From contig RHLF01000004.1 of assembly GCA_003712125.1 (NCBI GenBank), forward strand, positions 6,332 to 70,331: 64,000 nucleotides of DNA, given 5' to 3'. Position numbers and translations under genes: made by a program. Positions 41,950 through 48,203 of the stretch are shown here, in pieces. The notes beneath the pieces are model-generated. The model searched no databases. It was not told the origin of the DNA and saw only the letters and a program-made list of their open reading frames with translations. The stretch comes from Allomuricauda sp. Lineage in GTDB: Bacteria; Bacteroidota; Bacteroidia; Flavobacteriales; Flavobacteriaceae. The stretch's first letter is position 1, and every line of letters starts with the position of its first letter.

Positions 41950-41984
41950 TTGTGTTAATTAATGTGTTAAACCTTAACAAAGAT

Positions 41985-42010
41985 TGTAACTATTTGCCAT
42001 ATTTGCCGTC
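41985..42010 (+). promoter_or_regulatory. ECF-sigma promoter 1 (TGTAAC-N16-CGTC)
   Basis: TGTAAC 41985-90, 16-nt spacer, CGTC 42007-10. The same motif occurs at the ECF sigma gene at 52.4 kb. Confidence 0.7.
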
Positions 42011-42015
42011 TTTAA

Positions 42016-42126
42016 AATGAAAATACTATCATTGGTAAGACTGTATTTTTATAGTTAATGGTTAGTGTTTAGTATAGCTTATCAATGAATAACCCTGGTA
42101 GCCTTTGCTACCAGGGTTTCTTTTTT
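42016..42126 (+). ncRNA. Candidate small RNA unit 1 (may contain a 13-codon sORF)
   Basis: Bounded by ECF promoter 1 and a perfect 12-bp hairpin AACCCTGGTAGC/GCTACCAGGGTT plus TCTTTTTT. There is no + strand gene upstream for this hairpin to terminate. TGGTTAGT core at 42059-66. Confidence 0.6.
42091..42126 (+). terminator. Intrinsic terminator of unit 1
   Basis: 12-bp stem, CTTT loop, U-tract on the + strand. Confidence 0.85.
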
Positions 42127-42180
42127 GATTTAAAATCAACAGAAGCAAATAGGGTTTAAAATGTTAAAGCACCAAATTCG

Positions 42181-42206
42181 TGTAACATCTATCCATAATT
42201 AACGTC
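42181..42206 (+). promoter_or_regulatory. ECF-sigma promoter 2 (TGTAAC-N16-CGTC)
   Basis: TGTAAC 42181-86, 16-nt spacer, CGTC 42203-06. Confidence 0.7.
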
Positions 42207-42211
42207 TTGTG

Positions 42212-42331
42212 ATTAAAAGTAAGCGACCAAAATCGCTAGAAAAGATATTGGTTTGCCTTGTGGAATATTGGTTGGTTAGTTCCTGCAAGCAAATCAATAA
42301 GCCCCTAATGTTTCATTGGGGGTTTCTTTTT
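42212..42331 (+). ncRNA. Candidate small RNA unit 2
   Basis: ECF promoter 2, 5' hairpin AGCGA-CCAAAA-TCGCT, TTGGTTGGTTAGT core (42268-80), and terminator AAGCCCCTAATG/CATTGGGGGTTT plus CTTTTT. Confidence 0.55.
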
Positions 42332-43337
42332 ACCATCTAATAATGACACTCCCCCATGTGAAACCACTTCCAAAGGCAGCCAGAACAATCAAATCGCCTT
42401 CCTTAACCTTGCCTTGCTCCCAGGCCTCAGTCAACGCAATGGGTATTGATGCAGCGGTGGTATTGCCGTATTTCATGATATTATTGAATACCTGGTCATT
42501 CGATAGCCCGAACTTTTTTTGTACGAACTGAGAAATTCTAAGATTCGCCTGGTGCGGTACAAGAAGATCGATATCGGTTGCCGTAAGGTTGTTTTTTTGC
42601 AATCCTTCCATGATAACTTCACTAAATCGAACGACGGCATTTTTGAATACAAATTGGCCGTTCATATAAGGGAAATAGGACTCATCTTCAGGGTCATTTT
42701 CTTCAATAATATCCGTTACCCATCGTTTCCCCATCCCCGGGGCAATAAGTGACAATTCTTCTGCATGTTGACCTTCAGAATGCAAATGACTTGATAAGAT
42801 TCCTTTCTTTGGGTCCTCTTCCCTGCTAATTATTGCTGCACCAGCTCCATCACCGAAGATGACAGAGACTCCCCGACCTCTTGTGGTCATATCCAATCCA
42901 TGCGAATGAAGCTCAGAACCCACAACCAAAACATTTTTGTACATGCCACTTTTAACGTACTGATCGGCCACAGAGATGCCATATACAAATCCGGAACATT
43001 GATTTCTGACATCAAGGGCACCAACGGTTTTGATACCTAAATCGCGCTGAACCAATACACCAGGGCCTGGAAAATAGTAATCAGGACTCAAGGTGGCGAA
43101 GATGATAAAATCAACCTCGTCTTTATCAATGCCTGCGCGTTCGATTGCAATTTTTGCCGCCTTTACACCCATCGAGGTCGTAGTTTCTTCACCCCTTACC
43201 ACATGCCGGCGCTCTTTAATTCCCGTTCGCTCCTGAATCCACGCATCACTGGTTTCCATGACCTTCGACAAATCGTCATTGGTCACAACATTATCCGGAA
43301 CATAATACCCCAATCCCGTTATCTTAGAATTGTACAT
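42330..43337 (-). CDS. fabH: 3-oxoacyl-ACP synthase III family protein
   Basis: Catalytic Cys in DVRNQCSGF, FGDGAGA, PHQAN and GNTTAAS. Start placed at MYNSK. Confidence 0.9.
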   Translation of the reverse strand: MYNSKITGLGYYVPDNVVTNDDLSKVMETSDAWIQERTGIKERRHVVRGEETTTSMGVKAAKIAIERAGIDKDEVDFIIFATLSPDYYFPGPGVLVQRDLGIKTVGALDVRNQCSGFVYGISVADQYVKSGMYKNVLVVGSELHSHGLDMTTRGRGVSVIFGDGAGAAIISREEDPKKGILSSHLHSEGQHAEELSLIAPGMGKRWVTDIIEENDPEDESYFPYMNGQFVFKNAVVRFSEVIMEGLQKNNLTATDIDLLVPHQANLRISQFVQKKFGLSNDQVFNNIMKYGNTTAASIPIALTEAWEQGKVKEGDLIVLAAFGSGFTWGSVIIRW

Positions 43338-43529: not shown

Positions 43530-45989
43530 ATGAAAAAACTACTCCTCCCACTCGTTGTCCTATTTACATTATATGGGTTTACCCAAGAAAATCTTTCCTA
43601 TCAAAAACCTTCGGCGGAAATTTTGGATCTCGTGGATGCGCCCTTAGCCCCTTCAGTGCTGATTACCGATGATGGAGAATACATGATATTTCGTTATCGC
43701 GATGCCTATAAGAGTATTGCGGAATTGTCTGAAACAGAATTGCGTCTTGCTGGACTTCGGATAAATCCGAAATTGAATATTGGCAGCAGAACAAATTACT
43801 ACAACAACATAAGCTTGAAAAAGGCCGGCAGCAGCGATGAAATTCAAGCTAAGGGACTGCCCCAAAACCCCAGGCTGGCCAATTTTAGCTGGTCACCAAA
43901 TCAGAAAAAAATCGCATTCACCCATACCACGAATATGGGTGTTGAGGTGTGGGTTTTGCATCTAGAATCCGCAGAGGTCAATAAATTGACAGATGCCACC
44001 GTGAATGCCAATATGCGTGATGTAATCAATTGGTTTAAGGACGGTGAATCCATTTTGGTGAAAATGCTTCCCACGGATCGTAAACCGTTGATCAATACGG
44101 CTGCATCGGTACCCTCAGGACCAACTATTTCTTCCAATGATGGGAAAAAGGCCCAAAATCGAACCTATCAAGATTTATTGAAAAACCCCAATGATGAGTT
44201 CAATTTCGAACAATTGGCGCGCTCCGAACTTTACAAGGTCAATCTAGATGGAAGCAAAACCAAATGGATGGACGCCGATATGTACAGTTCCATCAATTTT
44301 TCACCTGACGGTAACTATGTGATGGTCGTGAATGTTGAAAAGCCCTTTTCATATTTAGTACCCTACCGTAGATTTCCATCAACCACTAAAATGTACCAAA
44401 GTGATGGTAGTTTGGTAACGACCATTCTTCATGTTCCCTTGATTGAGGACCTTCCACAGGGTTTTATGGCGGTTAGAACAGGAATGCGCAATATTTCATG
44501 GCGCAATGACAAACCGGCCACACTGGTATATGCCGAAGCCTTGGATGGTGGGGATCCAGAAAATGAAGTGGAATTTCGCGATGAAGTATTTGAAATGGAT
44601 GCCCCATTCACCAGTAAAGGGAAAAGTCTATTGAAGCTTACCAATCGCTATTATTATATCCAATGGGGGAATGAGACCATGGCCGTAGCTTATGATTATT
44701 GGTGGAACAACAGAAGCATAAAGGGTTATGTTTTTGACCCCTCCGATTCGACCAAACCTGCCAAAGTAGTTGAAGACAGAAATTATCAGGACGTTTATAG
44801 CGACCCTGGCGTATTTGTCACAAAAAGAAGTGACTACGGCACAACGGTACTATCTCTTGACAACGCGTCCGCCTATCTGATTGGAGATGGGTATACCAAA
44901 GAAGGTCAATTTCCATTTGTTGATAAAATTAACCTGGCCACGCTGGCAAAAGACCGAATGTATACTTCAAAACTAGAAGGTAAAAAGGAAAATATTATCG
45001 ACTATGATGTGGATGAAGACAAGTTGCTGGTTCGTATTGAATCTGCAGTCGAATATCCCAATTACTACTACAAACATCTGGTCAAGCGAAAAGGCGCTAT
45101 GCAACTTACCAACTTTGAAAATCCGTTCAAGAGTATTCAGGATGTGCATAAGGAGGTCATCACCTATAAGCGGGATGACGGTCTTGAATTAAGTGCTACC
45201 CTTTACTTGCCTGTCGGTTACGACAAAGAAAAAAAGGAAAAAGCACCCATGATTTTATGGGCGTATCCAAGAGAGTATAAAGACAAAAATAGTGCCTCGC
45301 AGAACACACAAAACCCTAATGAATTTACCTATCCCTACTGGGGTTCTCCAATTTATTGGGTAACCAAGGGGTATGCAGTTCTTGATGATGCGGCATTTCC
45401 TATCATAGGCGAGGGCGATGAAGAACCCAACGACACCTTTAGGAGCCAACTGGTTGCCAATGGCAAAGCTGCCATCGATGCTGTTGACGATATGGGGTAT
45501 ATCGACCGTAATCGCGTTGCCGTTGGCGGTCATAGTTATGGGGCCTTTATGGTTGCCAATCTTTTATCACATTCCGATTTATTTGCGGCCGGAATTGCCC
45601 GCAGTGGAGCCTACAATAGAACATTGACACCTTTCGGGTTCCAAAGTGAGGAGCGAAACTATTGGGAAGCCCCAGAAGTTTATTATACCATGTCACCCTT
45701 TATGCATGCCGACAAGATGAAAACACCGCTCTTATTGATTCATGGTCAAGCAGATAACAATTCAGGAACCTATCCCATGCAAAGCGAGCGCTATTTTAAT
45801 GCCCTTAAAGGTCTGGGGGCTACGGTTCGTTTGGTCATGCTACCGAAAGAAAGTCATGGTTATCGGGCCAAAGAAAGTATTCTTCATTTGTTATGGGAAC
45901 AGGATCAATGGCTTGAAAAATATGTCAAAAACAAATCCGAATCGAAGAAGGGGATTCAACTACAACCTACAATTGGTAAGGACAGGTAA
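43530..45989 (+). CDS. S9 family (prolyl oligopeptidase / glutamyl endopeptidase-like) serine peptidase
   Basis: Signal peptide, beta-propeller region, GGHSYGA, IHGQADNN and ESHG. Confidence 0.92.
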   Translation: MKKLLLPLVVLFTLYGFTQENLSYQKPSAEILDLVDAPLAPSVLITDDGEYMIFRYRDAYKSIAELSETELRLAGLRINPKLNIGSRTNYYNNISLKKAGSSDEIQAKGLPQNPRLANFSWSPNQKKIAFTHTTNMGVEVWVLHLESAEVNKLTDATVNANMRDVINWFKDGESILVKMLPTDRKPLINTAASVPSGPTISSNDGKKAQNRTYQDLLKNPNDEFNFEQLARSELYKVNLDGSKTKWMDADMYSSINFSPDGNYVMVVNVEKPFSYLVPYRRFPSTTKMYQSDGSLVTTILHVPLIEDLPQGFMAVRTGMRNISWRNDKPATLVYAEALDGGDPENEVEFRDEVFEMDAPFTSKGKSLLKLTNRYYYIQWGNETMAVAYDYWWNNRSIKGYVFDPSDSTKPAKVVEDRNYQDVYSDPGVFVTKRSDYGTTVLSLDNASAYLIGDGYTKEGQFPFVDKINLATLAKDRMYTSKLEGKKENIIDYDVDEDKLLVRIESAVEYPNYYYKHLVKRKGAMQLTNFENPFKSIQDVHKEVITYKRDDGLELSATLYLPVGYDKEKKEKAPMILWAYPREYKDKNSASQNTQNPNEFTYPYWGSPIYWVTKGYAVLDDAAFPIIGEGDEEPNDTFRSQLVANGKAAIDAVDDMGYIDRNRVAVGGHSYGAFMVANLLSHSDLFAAGIARSGAYNRTLTPFGFQSEERNYWEAPEVYYTMSPFMHADKMKTPLLLIHGQADNNSGTYPMQSERYFNALKGLGATVRLVMLPKESHGYRAKESILHLLWEQDQWLEKYVKNKSESKKGIQLQPTIGKDR

Positions 45990-46039: not shown

Positions 46040-46146
46040 ACAAATGGAAAGCGCACTTTCTGGCAAAAGTGCGCTTTCAACAACCTAACCAATAAATAAA
46101 CAAACTTGTTGTAGAATCTTCATCATAGCAATTTGATTACCACAAC
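46040..46146 (-). ncRNA. Candidate small RNA unit 3 (may contain a 12-13 codon sORF)
   Basis: Minus-strand TATATTTG (46158-51), core ATTGGTTAG (46093-85), and a perfect 13-bp hairpin 46047-59/46066-78. Confidence 0.5.
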
Positions 46147-46150
46147 TGCA

Positions 46151-46182
46151 CAAATATAATAATGTTTAATCTTTTAAAACAA
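46151..46182 (-). promoter_or_regulatory. Housekeeping promoter pointing into the gene-free 45990-46150 interval
   Basis: TTG at 46182-80, 21-nt spacer, TATATTTG at 46158-51. Confidence 0.6.
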
Positions 46183-46238: not shown

Positions 46239-46279
46239 TGTCAGTTTGTCAGCCCAAACAAGAATGGTATTTTTTTTGA
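46239..46279 (+). promoter_or_regulatory. Candidate sigma54-type promoter and upstream TGTCAG repeat of htpG
   Basis: TGTCAG-TT-TGTCAG (46239-52), then TGGTAT-N5-TTGA (46265-79) with exact -24/-12 spacing. Confidence 0.45.
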
Positions 46280-46313: not shown

Positions 46314-48203
46314 ATGGCAACAGGAAAAATAAATGTTTCGGTTGACAACATTTTTCCCCTTATTAAGAAGTTTTTATATAGCGATCATGAGATTTTTCTT
46401 CGTGAGCTCATATCCAATGCTACCGATGCCACATTGAAGTTGAAGCACTTGACTTCCATTGGCGAAGCCAAAGTGGAATACGGGAACCCACACATTGAAG
46501 TCAAAATAGACAAGAAAAAGAAAGAGCTGCGAATTCTTGACCAAGGTATCGGAATGACTGAGGCCGAGGTGAAAAAATACATCAATGAAGTTGCCTTTTC
46601 AGGTGCTGAAGAATTTCTGGACAAGTACAAGGATGCTGGAAAAGATGCTGGAATCATAGGACATTTTGGTCTTGGATTTTATTCTGCATTCATGGTTGCC
46701 GATAAAGTAGAAATCATCACCAAAAGTTTTAAGGATGAACCTGCGGTACATTGGTCATGCGATGGTTCCCCAGAATTCACGCTAAAAAAGGCCAAAAAAG
46801 AGGATCGAGGCACAGAAATCATCCTCCACATCGCTGACGATGAAAAAGACTTTTTGGAAGAATTCAAAATACGTGAACTGCTAAAAAAGTACAACAAGTT
46901 CATGCCCATACCAATAAAATTTGGCACTCGAACCGAAACGCTTCCAAAACCTGAAGGGGCCAAAGAAGACGAACCGGCACCAACAAAAGAGGTGGATGAC
47001 ATTATCAATAATCCTAACCCGGCATGGACCAAAAAACCGACGGATTTAAACGATGAGGACTACGCCTCTTTCTATCGTGAATTGTATCCCATGCAGTTTG
47101 AAGAGCCCTTGTTCAACATCCATTTGAATGTAGATTACCCCTTCAACCTTACGGGCATTCTATATTTTCCCAAATTGACGAATGACCTCAACATTCAAAA
47201 GGACAGGATTCAGTTATATCAAAATCAAGTCTTTGTCACCGACAATGTAGAAGGTATTGTCCCTGAATTTTTGACCATGTTACGCGGAGTCATCGATTCG
47301 CCTGATATACCCTTGAATGTATCCCGTTCCTATCTCCAGGCCGATGGGGCAGTAAAGAAGATATCAAGCTACATTACCAAAAAAGTTGCGGACAAACTAA
47401 ATTCATTGTTCAAGAACAATCGCGATGATTTTGAAAAAAAATGGAACGATATCAAAGTAGTCATTGAGTACGGCATGCTATCGGAAGAGAAATTTTTTGA
47501 AAAAGCCGAAAAATTCGCTCTGTATCCCACGGTGAACAATGACTATTTCACCTTTGAGGAACTGGAAAATAAAATCAAGGACAATCAGACCGACAAAGAT
47601 GACAAACTGGTCATTTTATATGCCTCTGACTTGGAAGCGCAACATAGCTACATTGAATCGGCAAAGGAAAAAGGCTATGAGGTACTTTTATTGGATAGTC
47701 CAATAGTTCCCCATCTTCTTCAAAAGTTGGAAACTTCAAAAGAAAAAATAGCCTTTGCCCGGGTTGATGCAGACCACATTGATAATCTCATCAAGAAGGA
47801 GGATGCTTCAATTTCAAAATTGACTGATGAAGAAAAAGACAAACTCAAAGAACAGATTGAGGGTGTAGTTGGTGAAAAAAGCCAGTTCACAGTTCAATTG
47901 GAAGCGATGGACAGCACTGCTCAACCCTTTGTCATTACCGAACCCGAATTTATGCGCAGGATGAAAGATATGCAACAGACTGGAGGTGGCGGTATGTTTG
48001 GCATGGGCAATATGCCAGATATGTTCAACTTGATCGTGAACACCAACCATGAACTGGTCGGTGAAATACTGACAACCAAAACCGCTAAAAAACGGGAACG
48101 CTTAATCAATCAATCCCTTGATTTGGCTCGCTTATCCAAAGGATTGTTGAAGGGTGAAGAACTCACTAATTTTATCAATCGCAGCTATGAGATGATCAAA
48201 TAA
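46314..48203 (+). CDS. htpG: Molecular chaperone Hsp90
   Basis: IFLRELISNATDA, DQGIGM, IGHFGLGFYSAF and LNVSRSYLQ. Confidence 0.97.
   Translation: MATGKINVSVDNIFPLIKKFLYSDHEIFLRELISNATDATLKLKHLTSIGEAKVEYGNPHIEVKIDKKKKELRILDQGIGMTEAEVKKYINEVAFSGAEEFLDKYKDAGKDAGIIGHFGLGFYSAFMVADKVEIITKSFKDEPAVHWSCDGSPEFTLKKAKKEDRGTEIILHIADDEKDFLEEFKIRELLKKYNKFMPIPIKFGTRTETLPKPEGAKEDEPAPTKEVDDIINNPNPAWTKKPTDLNDEDYASFYRELYPMQFEEPLFNIHLNVDYPFNLTGILYFPKLTNDLNIQKDRIQLYQNQVFVTDNVEGIVPEFLTMLRGVIDSPDIPLNVSRSYLQADGAVKKISSYITKKVADKLNSLFKNNRDDFEKKWNDIKVVIEYGMLSEEKFFEKAEKFALYPTVNNDYFTFEELENKIKDNQTDKDDKLVILYASDLEAQHSYIESAKEKGYEVLLLDSPIVPHLLQKLETSKEKIAFARVDADHIDNLIKKEDASISKLTDEEKDKLKEQIEGVVGEKSQFTVQLEAMDSTAQPFVITEPEFMRRMKDMQQTGGGGMFGMGNMPDMFNLIVNTNHELVGEILTTKTAKKRERLINQSLDLARLSKGLLKGEELTNFINRSYEMIK

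Follow-up and report, generated by a model that had tools for sequence, protein, structure and literature searches.

The DNA between the S9 peptidase gene and htpG carries, on its minus strand, a small-RNA gene that is conserved, together with its promoter and a palindrome, over many genera of marine Flavobacteriaceae. Our comparison of the 64-kb stretch analysed here (the window; Table 1) with related genomes establishes the conservation of this RNA, its structure and strand, the architecture of its promoter and operator, and its linkage to neighbouring genes. On balance, we judge it probable that the locus is a free-standing gene, that its product is a structured small RNA of about 106 nt made from a sigma-A promoter under the control of a repressor, and that this RNA is a base-pairing regulator. 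The start point of transcription, the binding of a TetR-type repressor to the palindrome and the action of the RNA by base pairing are our inferences.

An earlier note on this DNA had proposed a minus-strand small RNA of ~105 nt, divergent from htpG, and this is borne out by its conservation, with covariation, in more than 60 genomes. The promoter box, the core and the hairpin all lie on the minus strand where they had been placed, the distance from box to core being 58 nt where ~60 nt had been given. The hairpin runs into CATTTG on the minus strand, and the + strand, where AACAACC follows, has no T run, just as had been described; a terminator scan called the hairpin on the minus strand and not on the other. 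In the window, the terminator has a weak U tail (CAUUUG); homologues have a better one (UUUUCCUUUU), with the T run on the minus-strand side.

Table 1. Positions of the features discussed in the text, in window coordinates
Feature	Position	Strand	Remarks
Units 1 and 2	41950-42330	+	
Unit 1	41986-42131	+	GTAAC (41986-41990)-N16-CGTCT (42007-42011); terminator ~42094-42131
Unit 2	42182-42332	+	GTAAC (42182-42186)-N16-CGTCT (42203-42207); terminator abutting the end of fabH
S9 peptidase gene	43530-45989	+	Confirmed by Pfam
Small-RNA gene, predicted extent	46146-46041	-	106 nt
5' stem-loop SL1	46146-46108	-	Predicted start G46146; arms GUUGUGG and CUACAAC
SL1 loop element UUGCUAUGA, near-invariant	46131-46123	-	AUG at 46126-46124
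Unpaired conserved stretch AAGUUUGUUUAUUUAUUGGUUAGGUUGUU	46107-46079	-	~29 nt; proposed seed
Core ATTGGTTAGGTTG	46093-46081	-	58 nt beyond TATATTTG
Invariant 11-nt core UGGUUAGGUUG	46091-46081	-	Inside the unpaired stretch
Hairpin arms GAAAGCGCACUUUU/GAAAGUGCGCUUUC	46078-46047	-	13-14 bp, then CAUUUG
Intrinsic terminator	46078-46041	-	Stem 46078-46047, tail CAUUUG 46046-46041
Part of the small RNA, UUUAUUGGUUAGGUUGUU			Usable as Northern probe target
Promoter box TATATTTG, sigma-A type -7 box	46158-46151	-	
Palindrome TGTTTAA-N16-TTAAACA, probable operator	46192-46163	-	30 bp; centre ~-31.5 from the predicted start
Upstream box 1, TTTAACA	46207-46201	-	8 nt before the left palindrome arm
TGTCAGTTTGTCAG, possible enhancer site	46239-46252	+	
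TGGTAT-N5-TTGA, sigma-54-like -24/-12 element	46265-46279	+	
HSP90/htpG gene	46314-48203	+	Confirmed by Pfam

Conservation and folding of the RNA

A protein search with htpG supplied 80 htpG regions of related species, which with the window made 81 sources. The htpG protein of the window is 91% identical to that of a Croceivirga genome, and the DNA upstream of htpG can be aligned at 70-85% identity over many genera, which is unusual for non-coding DNA at such distance. A covariance model built on a 25-sequence alignment makes exactly one strong match in 64 of the 81 regions (47.8-121.7 bits), from at least 15 genera; the next-best match, at 27.8 bits, is the terminator read on the opposite strand. 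The window RNA itself scores 112.6 bits (E ~1e-18), and the strong match is single in the 64-kb window as in each of 63 loci. Carriers include Croceivirga, Flagellimonas, Croceitalea, Maribacter, Zobellia, Ulvibacterium and Poritiphilus as well as Sediminicola, Pricia, Saonia, Robiginitalea, Sungkyunkwania, Aquimarina and Aequorivita; the loci from Arenibacter, Winogradskyella, Mangrovimonas, Gaetbulibacter, Corallibacter and Pontimicrobium showed no copy beside htpG. As a check on the bias of sampling by htpG, metagenome contigs were scanned with the 15-mer ATTGGTTAGGTTGTT from the core. The covariance model recognises 10 of the 80 contigs with this 15-mer as true members, all ten of which adjoin htpG and/or tetR-abc1; the others are chance matches, as expected for a collection of this size.

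The 106-nt RNA folds at -31.1 kcal/mol (z = -3.7), and none of 200 shuffled sequences folds as well. RNAalifold, run on the 25-sequence alignment, predicts two helices, one of 7 bp at the 5' end and that of the terminator. In an alignment of 63 sequences, which was fitted to the covariance model (folds of single sequences give the same helices independently), 98.2% of the cells in the two helices are standard pairs and 19 of the 20 pairs show compensatory changes; when the 3' partners are shifted by 1-3 columns as a control, pairing drops to 35-52%. The changes are spread over both helices, with 7/7 compensatory pairs in SL1 (95% of cells paired) and 12/13 in the terminator (99.6%), and nearly all single sequences fold SL1. 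Because the ~107 G-U cells in the helix columns, against 23 non-pairs, would be A-C if read on the other strand, the functional strand is the minus strand.

Between SL1 and the terminator lies UUUGUUUAUUUAUUGGUUAGGUUGUU, which is nearly invariant and is unpaired in both the minimum-energy and the consensus folds. The sequence GGTTAGGTTG occupies the same place at 57 of the 80 loci and adjoins tetR-abc1 in three further loci. Among 56 sequences, the invariant positions are T56 and G58-G66 in the linker and G18, C19 and T20 in SL1. The AUG of the SL1 loop is nearly invariant too and is usually followed by AAA AAG. The loop as a whole, UUGCUAUGA(AAAAG), is near-invariant without a conserved peptide and resembles the start of an 'MKK...' mRNA. 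We also looked at an alternative hairpin between the 3' arm of SL1 and the beginning of the seed; it is good in the Maribacter type (AUAAUCA/UGAUUAU), bulged in the Flagellimonas type and different or absent elsewhere, and as its pairing is not conserved across the groups we make no claim for a switch.

Promoter, operator and genomic neighbours

The promoter was surveyed in 67 homologous upstream regions. A TAnnTTT[G/A] box is present in 60 of them, and in 47 of these 60 it lies 4-5 nt before the first base of the SL1 stem. Mapped starts in Flavobacterium psychrophilum place the sigma-A box TAnnTTTG at -12 to -5 (PMC9723704). Taken together, these two distances lead us to predict that transcription starts at the first stem base, G46146; the RNA thus has a promoter of its own at a set distance from its conserved 5' end, as a small-RNA gene should. 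The housekeeping promoter of the earlier note therefore stands in its box, which is conserved; the 'TTG' that it saw at -33 (46182-46180) is not conserved, and a palindrome is found there instead. An E. coli-like promoter match on the minus strand (46244-46215) was rejected: it overlaps the conserved block upstream of htpG and is of a type that the sigma-A of Bacteroidota does not use.

The palindrome, TGTTTAA-N16-TTAAACA, matches once in the window (0.02 expected) and once per locus in 37 loci, always with the N16 spacing, and a relaxed form is present in 57 of the 67 upstream regions. Upstream box 1 precedes its left arm by 5-9 nt across the homologues; the box can be seen by eye in most of the 67 regions, and an automated search for TT[TA]AACAA in the first 35 nt of each region finds it in 32. 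The position of the palindrome over the core promoter suggests repression, and because of this position we suggest that a DNA-binding repressor probably times the small RNA. The obvious candidate is the neighbouring TetR-family protein, since tetR is encoded just downstream in most relatives. In many genomes, the spacer between the terminator and tetR (for example, L005 3659-3725) contains a TTAACA-N20-TAnnTTT[G/A] element and then TTTGTTTAAACAAA. The latter is a compact palindrome that shares its half-sites with the 30-bp palindrome and is often overlapped by the TTAACA-N20-TAnnTTT[G/A] element; one regulator may bind both TTTGTTTAAACAAA and the 30-bp palindrome.

On the other side of the intergenic region, the htpG control block (46239-46279) is conserved in 80 of 80 loci, including those without the small RNA. 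The htpG, dnaK, groES and lon genes of F. psychrophilum depend on sigma-54 (SM4) (PMC9723704), and the -24/-12 spacing of the block fits such dependence.

The peptidase gene is not a constant neighbour of the small RNA. The genes tetR (Pfam TetR_C_23) and abc1 (an ABC1/UbiB-type kinase) stand beside htpG in 51 of the 80 loci, and all 51 carry the RNA, which in the 46 loci examined is upstream of tetR on the same strand; the terminator is 49-92 nt from the start of tetR (43 loci with a located start). The window has neither tetR nor abc1 within its 64 kb, and in at least nine genomes the RNA has no tetR-abc1 nearby. Where it is not tetR, the downstream neighbour is the convergent peptidase gene (the window, L001, L063), fabH (L009, L002) or nothing, so that the constant same-strand downstream gene expected of a leader or riboswitch is lacking.

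In five lineages (L080, L091, L097, L064, L073), the element lies after abc1. The Aequorivita locus (L080) has the complete module there: a near-palindrome with one mismatch, the box TATCTTTA, the stem-loop, the core and the terminator. In L091 and L097, two metagenome contigs, the sequence upstream of the RNA is related but lacks a box at the expected distance. The Aquimarina loci (L064 1633-1719 and L073 1640-1726, both on the minus strand) retain only the seed and the terminator, which begin at the abc1 stop codon; a G+C-rich hairpin stands in place of the 5' stem-loop, a promoter box cannot be seen, and the palindrome-promoter is directly before tetR. The Aquimarina form looks, from its sequence, like a version of the RNA that is derived from an mRNA 3' end. 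Thus, the transcription unit headed by the palindrome always contains the RNA, and the position of the RNA within it varies, a pattern that speaks against a leader and for a free-standing gene, and that fits a trans-acting product co-regulated with tetR-abc1.

We consider it unlikely that the element is instead a cis-acting 5' leader or attenuator of tetR-abc1, in which a protein, a ligand or the translation of a tiny leader ORF would control, through the terminator, whether read-through reaches tetR and the window copy would be an orphan left when tetR-abc1 moved away. Its unbroken presence at the tetR-abc1 loci, upstream of tetR and on the same strand, is what a leader would show, and the near-invariant AUG of the SL1 loop and the placing of the Aquimarina palindrome-promoter can be read in the same way; so can a 151-nt contig of run X32 that covers the 3' part of a homologous RNA together with the start of tetR, although this contig is unstranded and could be read-through or DNA. 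Against this reading, the module is intact in the window, L001 and L063, where no same-strand gene follows it, and in L009 and L002, where fabH does; the RNA also occurs after abc1, with its own promoter (L080), in the metagenome contigs, or as a 3' end in Aquimarina. Moreover, the separate TTAACA-N20-TAnnTTT[G/A] element between terminator and tetR is present in many genomes, no conserved anti-terminator alternative was found when the folds were searched for one, and the length of the leader ORF and the position of its stop vary.

Mode of action and remaining alternatives

Our model for the free-standing small RNA is as follows. Transcription from the sigma-A promoter would start at G46146, and a repressor bound to the 30-bp palindromic operator would probably decide when the RNA is made. 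As the covariation shows, the RNA has three parts: the 5' stem-loop, the G/U-rich stretch of ~29 nt, which is unpaired and nearly invariant, and the intrinsic terminator. The unpaired stretch would pair with C/A-rich and A-rich parts of mRNAs, typically their translation-initiation regions, and thereby alter translation or stability. Base pairing with mRNAs is the most likely mode of action by analogy with the proposals made for GibS/FopS and Rfp18. If it is true, conserved targets with CAACCUAACCAAUAAA-like sites in their initiation regions are to be expected. From the linkage to htpG and tetR-abc1, a role in a stress response or in an envelope/proteostasis response can be speculated.

Two target searches of low power gave chance-level results: against 60 translation-initiation regions taken from the window, the seed reached at best an RNAduplex energy of -22.6 kcal/mol, which falls in the 3% tail of the background, as chance would give, and the energy against the tetR initiation region in 27 genomes was -13.1 compared with -12.8 for shuffled seeds. 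As for expression, no reads came from a host organism's raw poly-A runs. A mollusc-associated metatranscriptome has one contig of 156 nt (depth 9.6) on the core and terminator of a homologue and none on the flanking genes; it is unstranded, extends 58 nt beyond the terminator and could stem from read-through or from DNA. A 48-nt unitig of runs X33 and X35, whose type is unknown, lies over the invariant core (L005 3750-3797) at 2-15 times the depth of its flanks, and this excess is likely to mean that several related strains share the core exactly, not that it is expressed.

It is doubtful, and to us less likely than a leader, that the RNA has no mRNA pairing of its own and acts as a protein-binding or decoy RNA. 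In such a scheme, the loop UUGCUAUGAAAAAG would mimic the start of an 'MKK...' mRNA and, with the G/U stretch, titrate a partner, which could be an RNA-binding protein, the ribosome or another small RNA. A decoy would account for the presence of two distinct conserved unpaired elements (loop and linker), for the retention of AUG-AAA-AAG in the loop without a conserved peptide, and for the target searches that found no mRNA. Bacteroidota have no Hfq, and RRM proteins such as RbpB bind small RNAs in this phylum (PMC11697453), which would also speak for a decoy. However, Aquimarina has no such loop yet keeps the G/U stretch and the terminator, which suggests that it is the linear stretch that is essential.

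That there is no functional RNA at all, the hairpin being the terminator of the peptidase gene and the remainder DNA sites that control htpG, is highly improbable and was already strongly disfavoured by the comparisons. The hairpin of the window does lie 58 nt past the peptidase stop codon, the region does border the conserved htpG control block, and metatranscriptome contigs compared with the window cover only htpG pieces from relatives, with none over the RNA. A terminator of the peptidase gene was also the outcome that the earlier note had named as its own refutation. However, most carriers have no convergent peptidase gene, the hairpin being kept in more than 50 such genomes, and it must accordingly belong to the small RNA. 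Further, both helices have compensatory changes and many G-U pairs, homologues have their T run on the minus-strand side, loci without the element still keep the control block, and in Aequorivita and Aquimarina the element is 2 kb away from htpG. Finally, the production of a small protein (MMKILQQVCLFIG in the window) from the near-invariant ATG with its usual AAA AAG is hardly credible and was rejected, because the length of the ORF varies from 2 codons (10 genomes) through 13-14 to more than 30 (Maribacter), a few genomes have GTG, AAG or ATA as the start codon, and the invariant core falls into each of the three frames (29/17/15), so that no reading frame is conserved, as befits a small RNA.

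Relation to other small RNAs

Rfam 15 gives nothing at gathering score in the window and nothing up to E = 10 on 46041-46146, and a limited full-text search of the literature, by core sequence and for flavobacterial small RNAs, returned no description of the RNA. We suggest that it is a new RNA of a known kind, free-standing and intrinsically terminated; sequence comparison finds no likeness to Rfam 15, Rfp18 or FopS. In mechanism, the proposed seed is reminiscent of enterobacterial GcvB, an Hfq-dependent RNA whose long unpaired G/U-rich seed pairs with C/A-rich elements near start codons and whose gene adjoins, divergently, the regulator gene gcvA. The likeness ends there: sequence and phylum are unrelated, and tetR is downstream on the same strand in the present case.

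The closest parallels in the phylum are GibS and FopS of Bacteroides thetaiotaomicron (PMC7366714, PMC11697453), which, like the window RNA, have a sigma-A TAnnTTTG promoter, an unpaired conserved seed and a Rho-independent terminator within ~65-145 nt, and which act on translation-initiation regions. One member of the FopS family is derived from a 3' end, which recalls the Aquimarina form. The FopS consensus, GTGTTTTTCATAGTATTAGATTTAAGGTTAACAAA, has no sequence likeness to the window RNA, and FopS is present in 14 copies per genome, whereas the window RNA has one copy in the window and in each sampled locus. The seeds also differ in position, that of GibS/FopS being at the 5' end and that of the window RNA between the 5' stem-loop and the terminator, and the host family of the window RNA is, unlike theirs, the Flavobacteriaceae. 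The Aquimarina form at the abc1 stop codon (L064, L073) is comparable to CpxQ, SroC and other small RNAs that come from mRNA 3' ends (reviewed in PMC9438474); in most genera, as in the window, the RNA differs from these in having a promoter and a start of its own.

Rfp18 of F. psychrophilum (PMC9723704) is from the same bacterial family and is ~97 nt long; it has a U/G-rich UUUUUUGGUUGGUUAAG just before its terminator, which is predicted to pair with the initiation regions of metalloprotease mRNAs, and it is conserved beyond F. psychrophilum. It differs in its locus, the hppD neighbourhood as opposed to htpG, and is drawn with four stem-loops. Our nhmmer search with the profile of the small-RNA family found no match at E <= 100 in the Rfp18 sequences of F. 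psychrophilum and F. columnare, and the block similarity of Rfp18 to the window RNA has a shuffle p of 0.04-0.24. Both TGGTTAGG and TTGCTATGAAAA are absent from all the listed Rfp RNAs.

The earlier note had taken the htpG-side RNA as the third paralogous unit of a family, after units 1 and 2, and this claim fails. The covariance model scores 17.1 bits on unit 1 (42028-42126, + strand), with an E of 4.6 that is at chance level, and makes no match at E <= 10 on unit 2; with the profile of the family, nhmmer scores a 13-nt piece of unit 1 at -2.3 bits and does not match unit 2. With neither covariance-model nor profile-HMM homology, and with one copy in each sampled region, there is no paralogy to be seen. 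The supposed match of the core to units 1 and 2 comes down to the heptamer UGGUUAG, which is expected from a G/U-rich composition. Composition-preserving shuffles of the htpG-side RNA against the blocks of unit 1 give p = 0.12 by score and 0.40 by 7-mer, and against those of unit 2 p = 0.07 and 0.11, respectively. WTGGTTAG, which we counted within the window, occurs 5 times where 4.15 are expected, no enrichment beyond chance. The idea of one family with copies under different sigma factors is right as to the sigma factors, units 1 and 2 being behind an ECF-like GTAAC-N16-CGTCT, and wrong as to the family, the RNAs being unrelated. As judged by sequence, the three units are not one family, though each looks real by itself.

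Unit 1 is a conserved small-RNA candidate in its own right, found at ~27 htpG loci and usually 1.4-3.8 kb from htpG, with an invariant block, TTTATAGTTAATGGTTAGTGTTTAGTATAG, and a terminator stem that varies in sequence and keeps its pairing. Unit 2 has two AUAUUGGUU motifs, and L009 and L048 are the only sampled loci in which it is conserved. It has an 11-mer, TTGGTTGGTTA, in common with Rfp18 of F. psychrophilum, before the terminator in both (shuffle p = 0.005-0.02), and could, on this sequence similarity, be a distant relative of Rfp18.

A more far-reaching proposal, which we offer as a long shot, is that the RNA is the output of a TetR-type sensor circuit coupled physically to sigma-54 htpG across the Flavobacteriaceae and combines the G/U seed with a decoy loop, 'AUG AAA AAG', that mimics the start region of a secreted-protein mRNA, and that a UUGGUUAG-like seed has in addition arisen independently in unit 1, unit 2 and Rfp18 under different sigma factors. 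If this is true, a single class of target site would receive several inputs. The Flavobacteriia are central to the turnover of polysaccharides in the sea, and of the very few regulatory RNAs known in them only Rfp18 has been tested. The comparative support for the present RNA is unusually strong, with more than 70 homologues, two covarying helices, a conserved operator and fixed partners in htpG and tetR-abc1. The breadth of the homologues makes comparative target prediction possible, as well as a clean genetic test in several culturable genera, and could open the study of how small RNAs are wired into stress responses in a phylum that has no Hfq.
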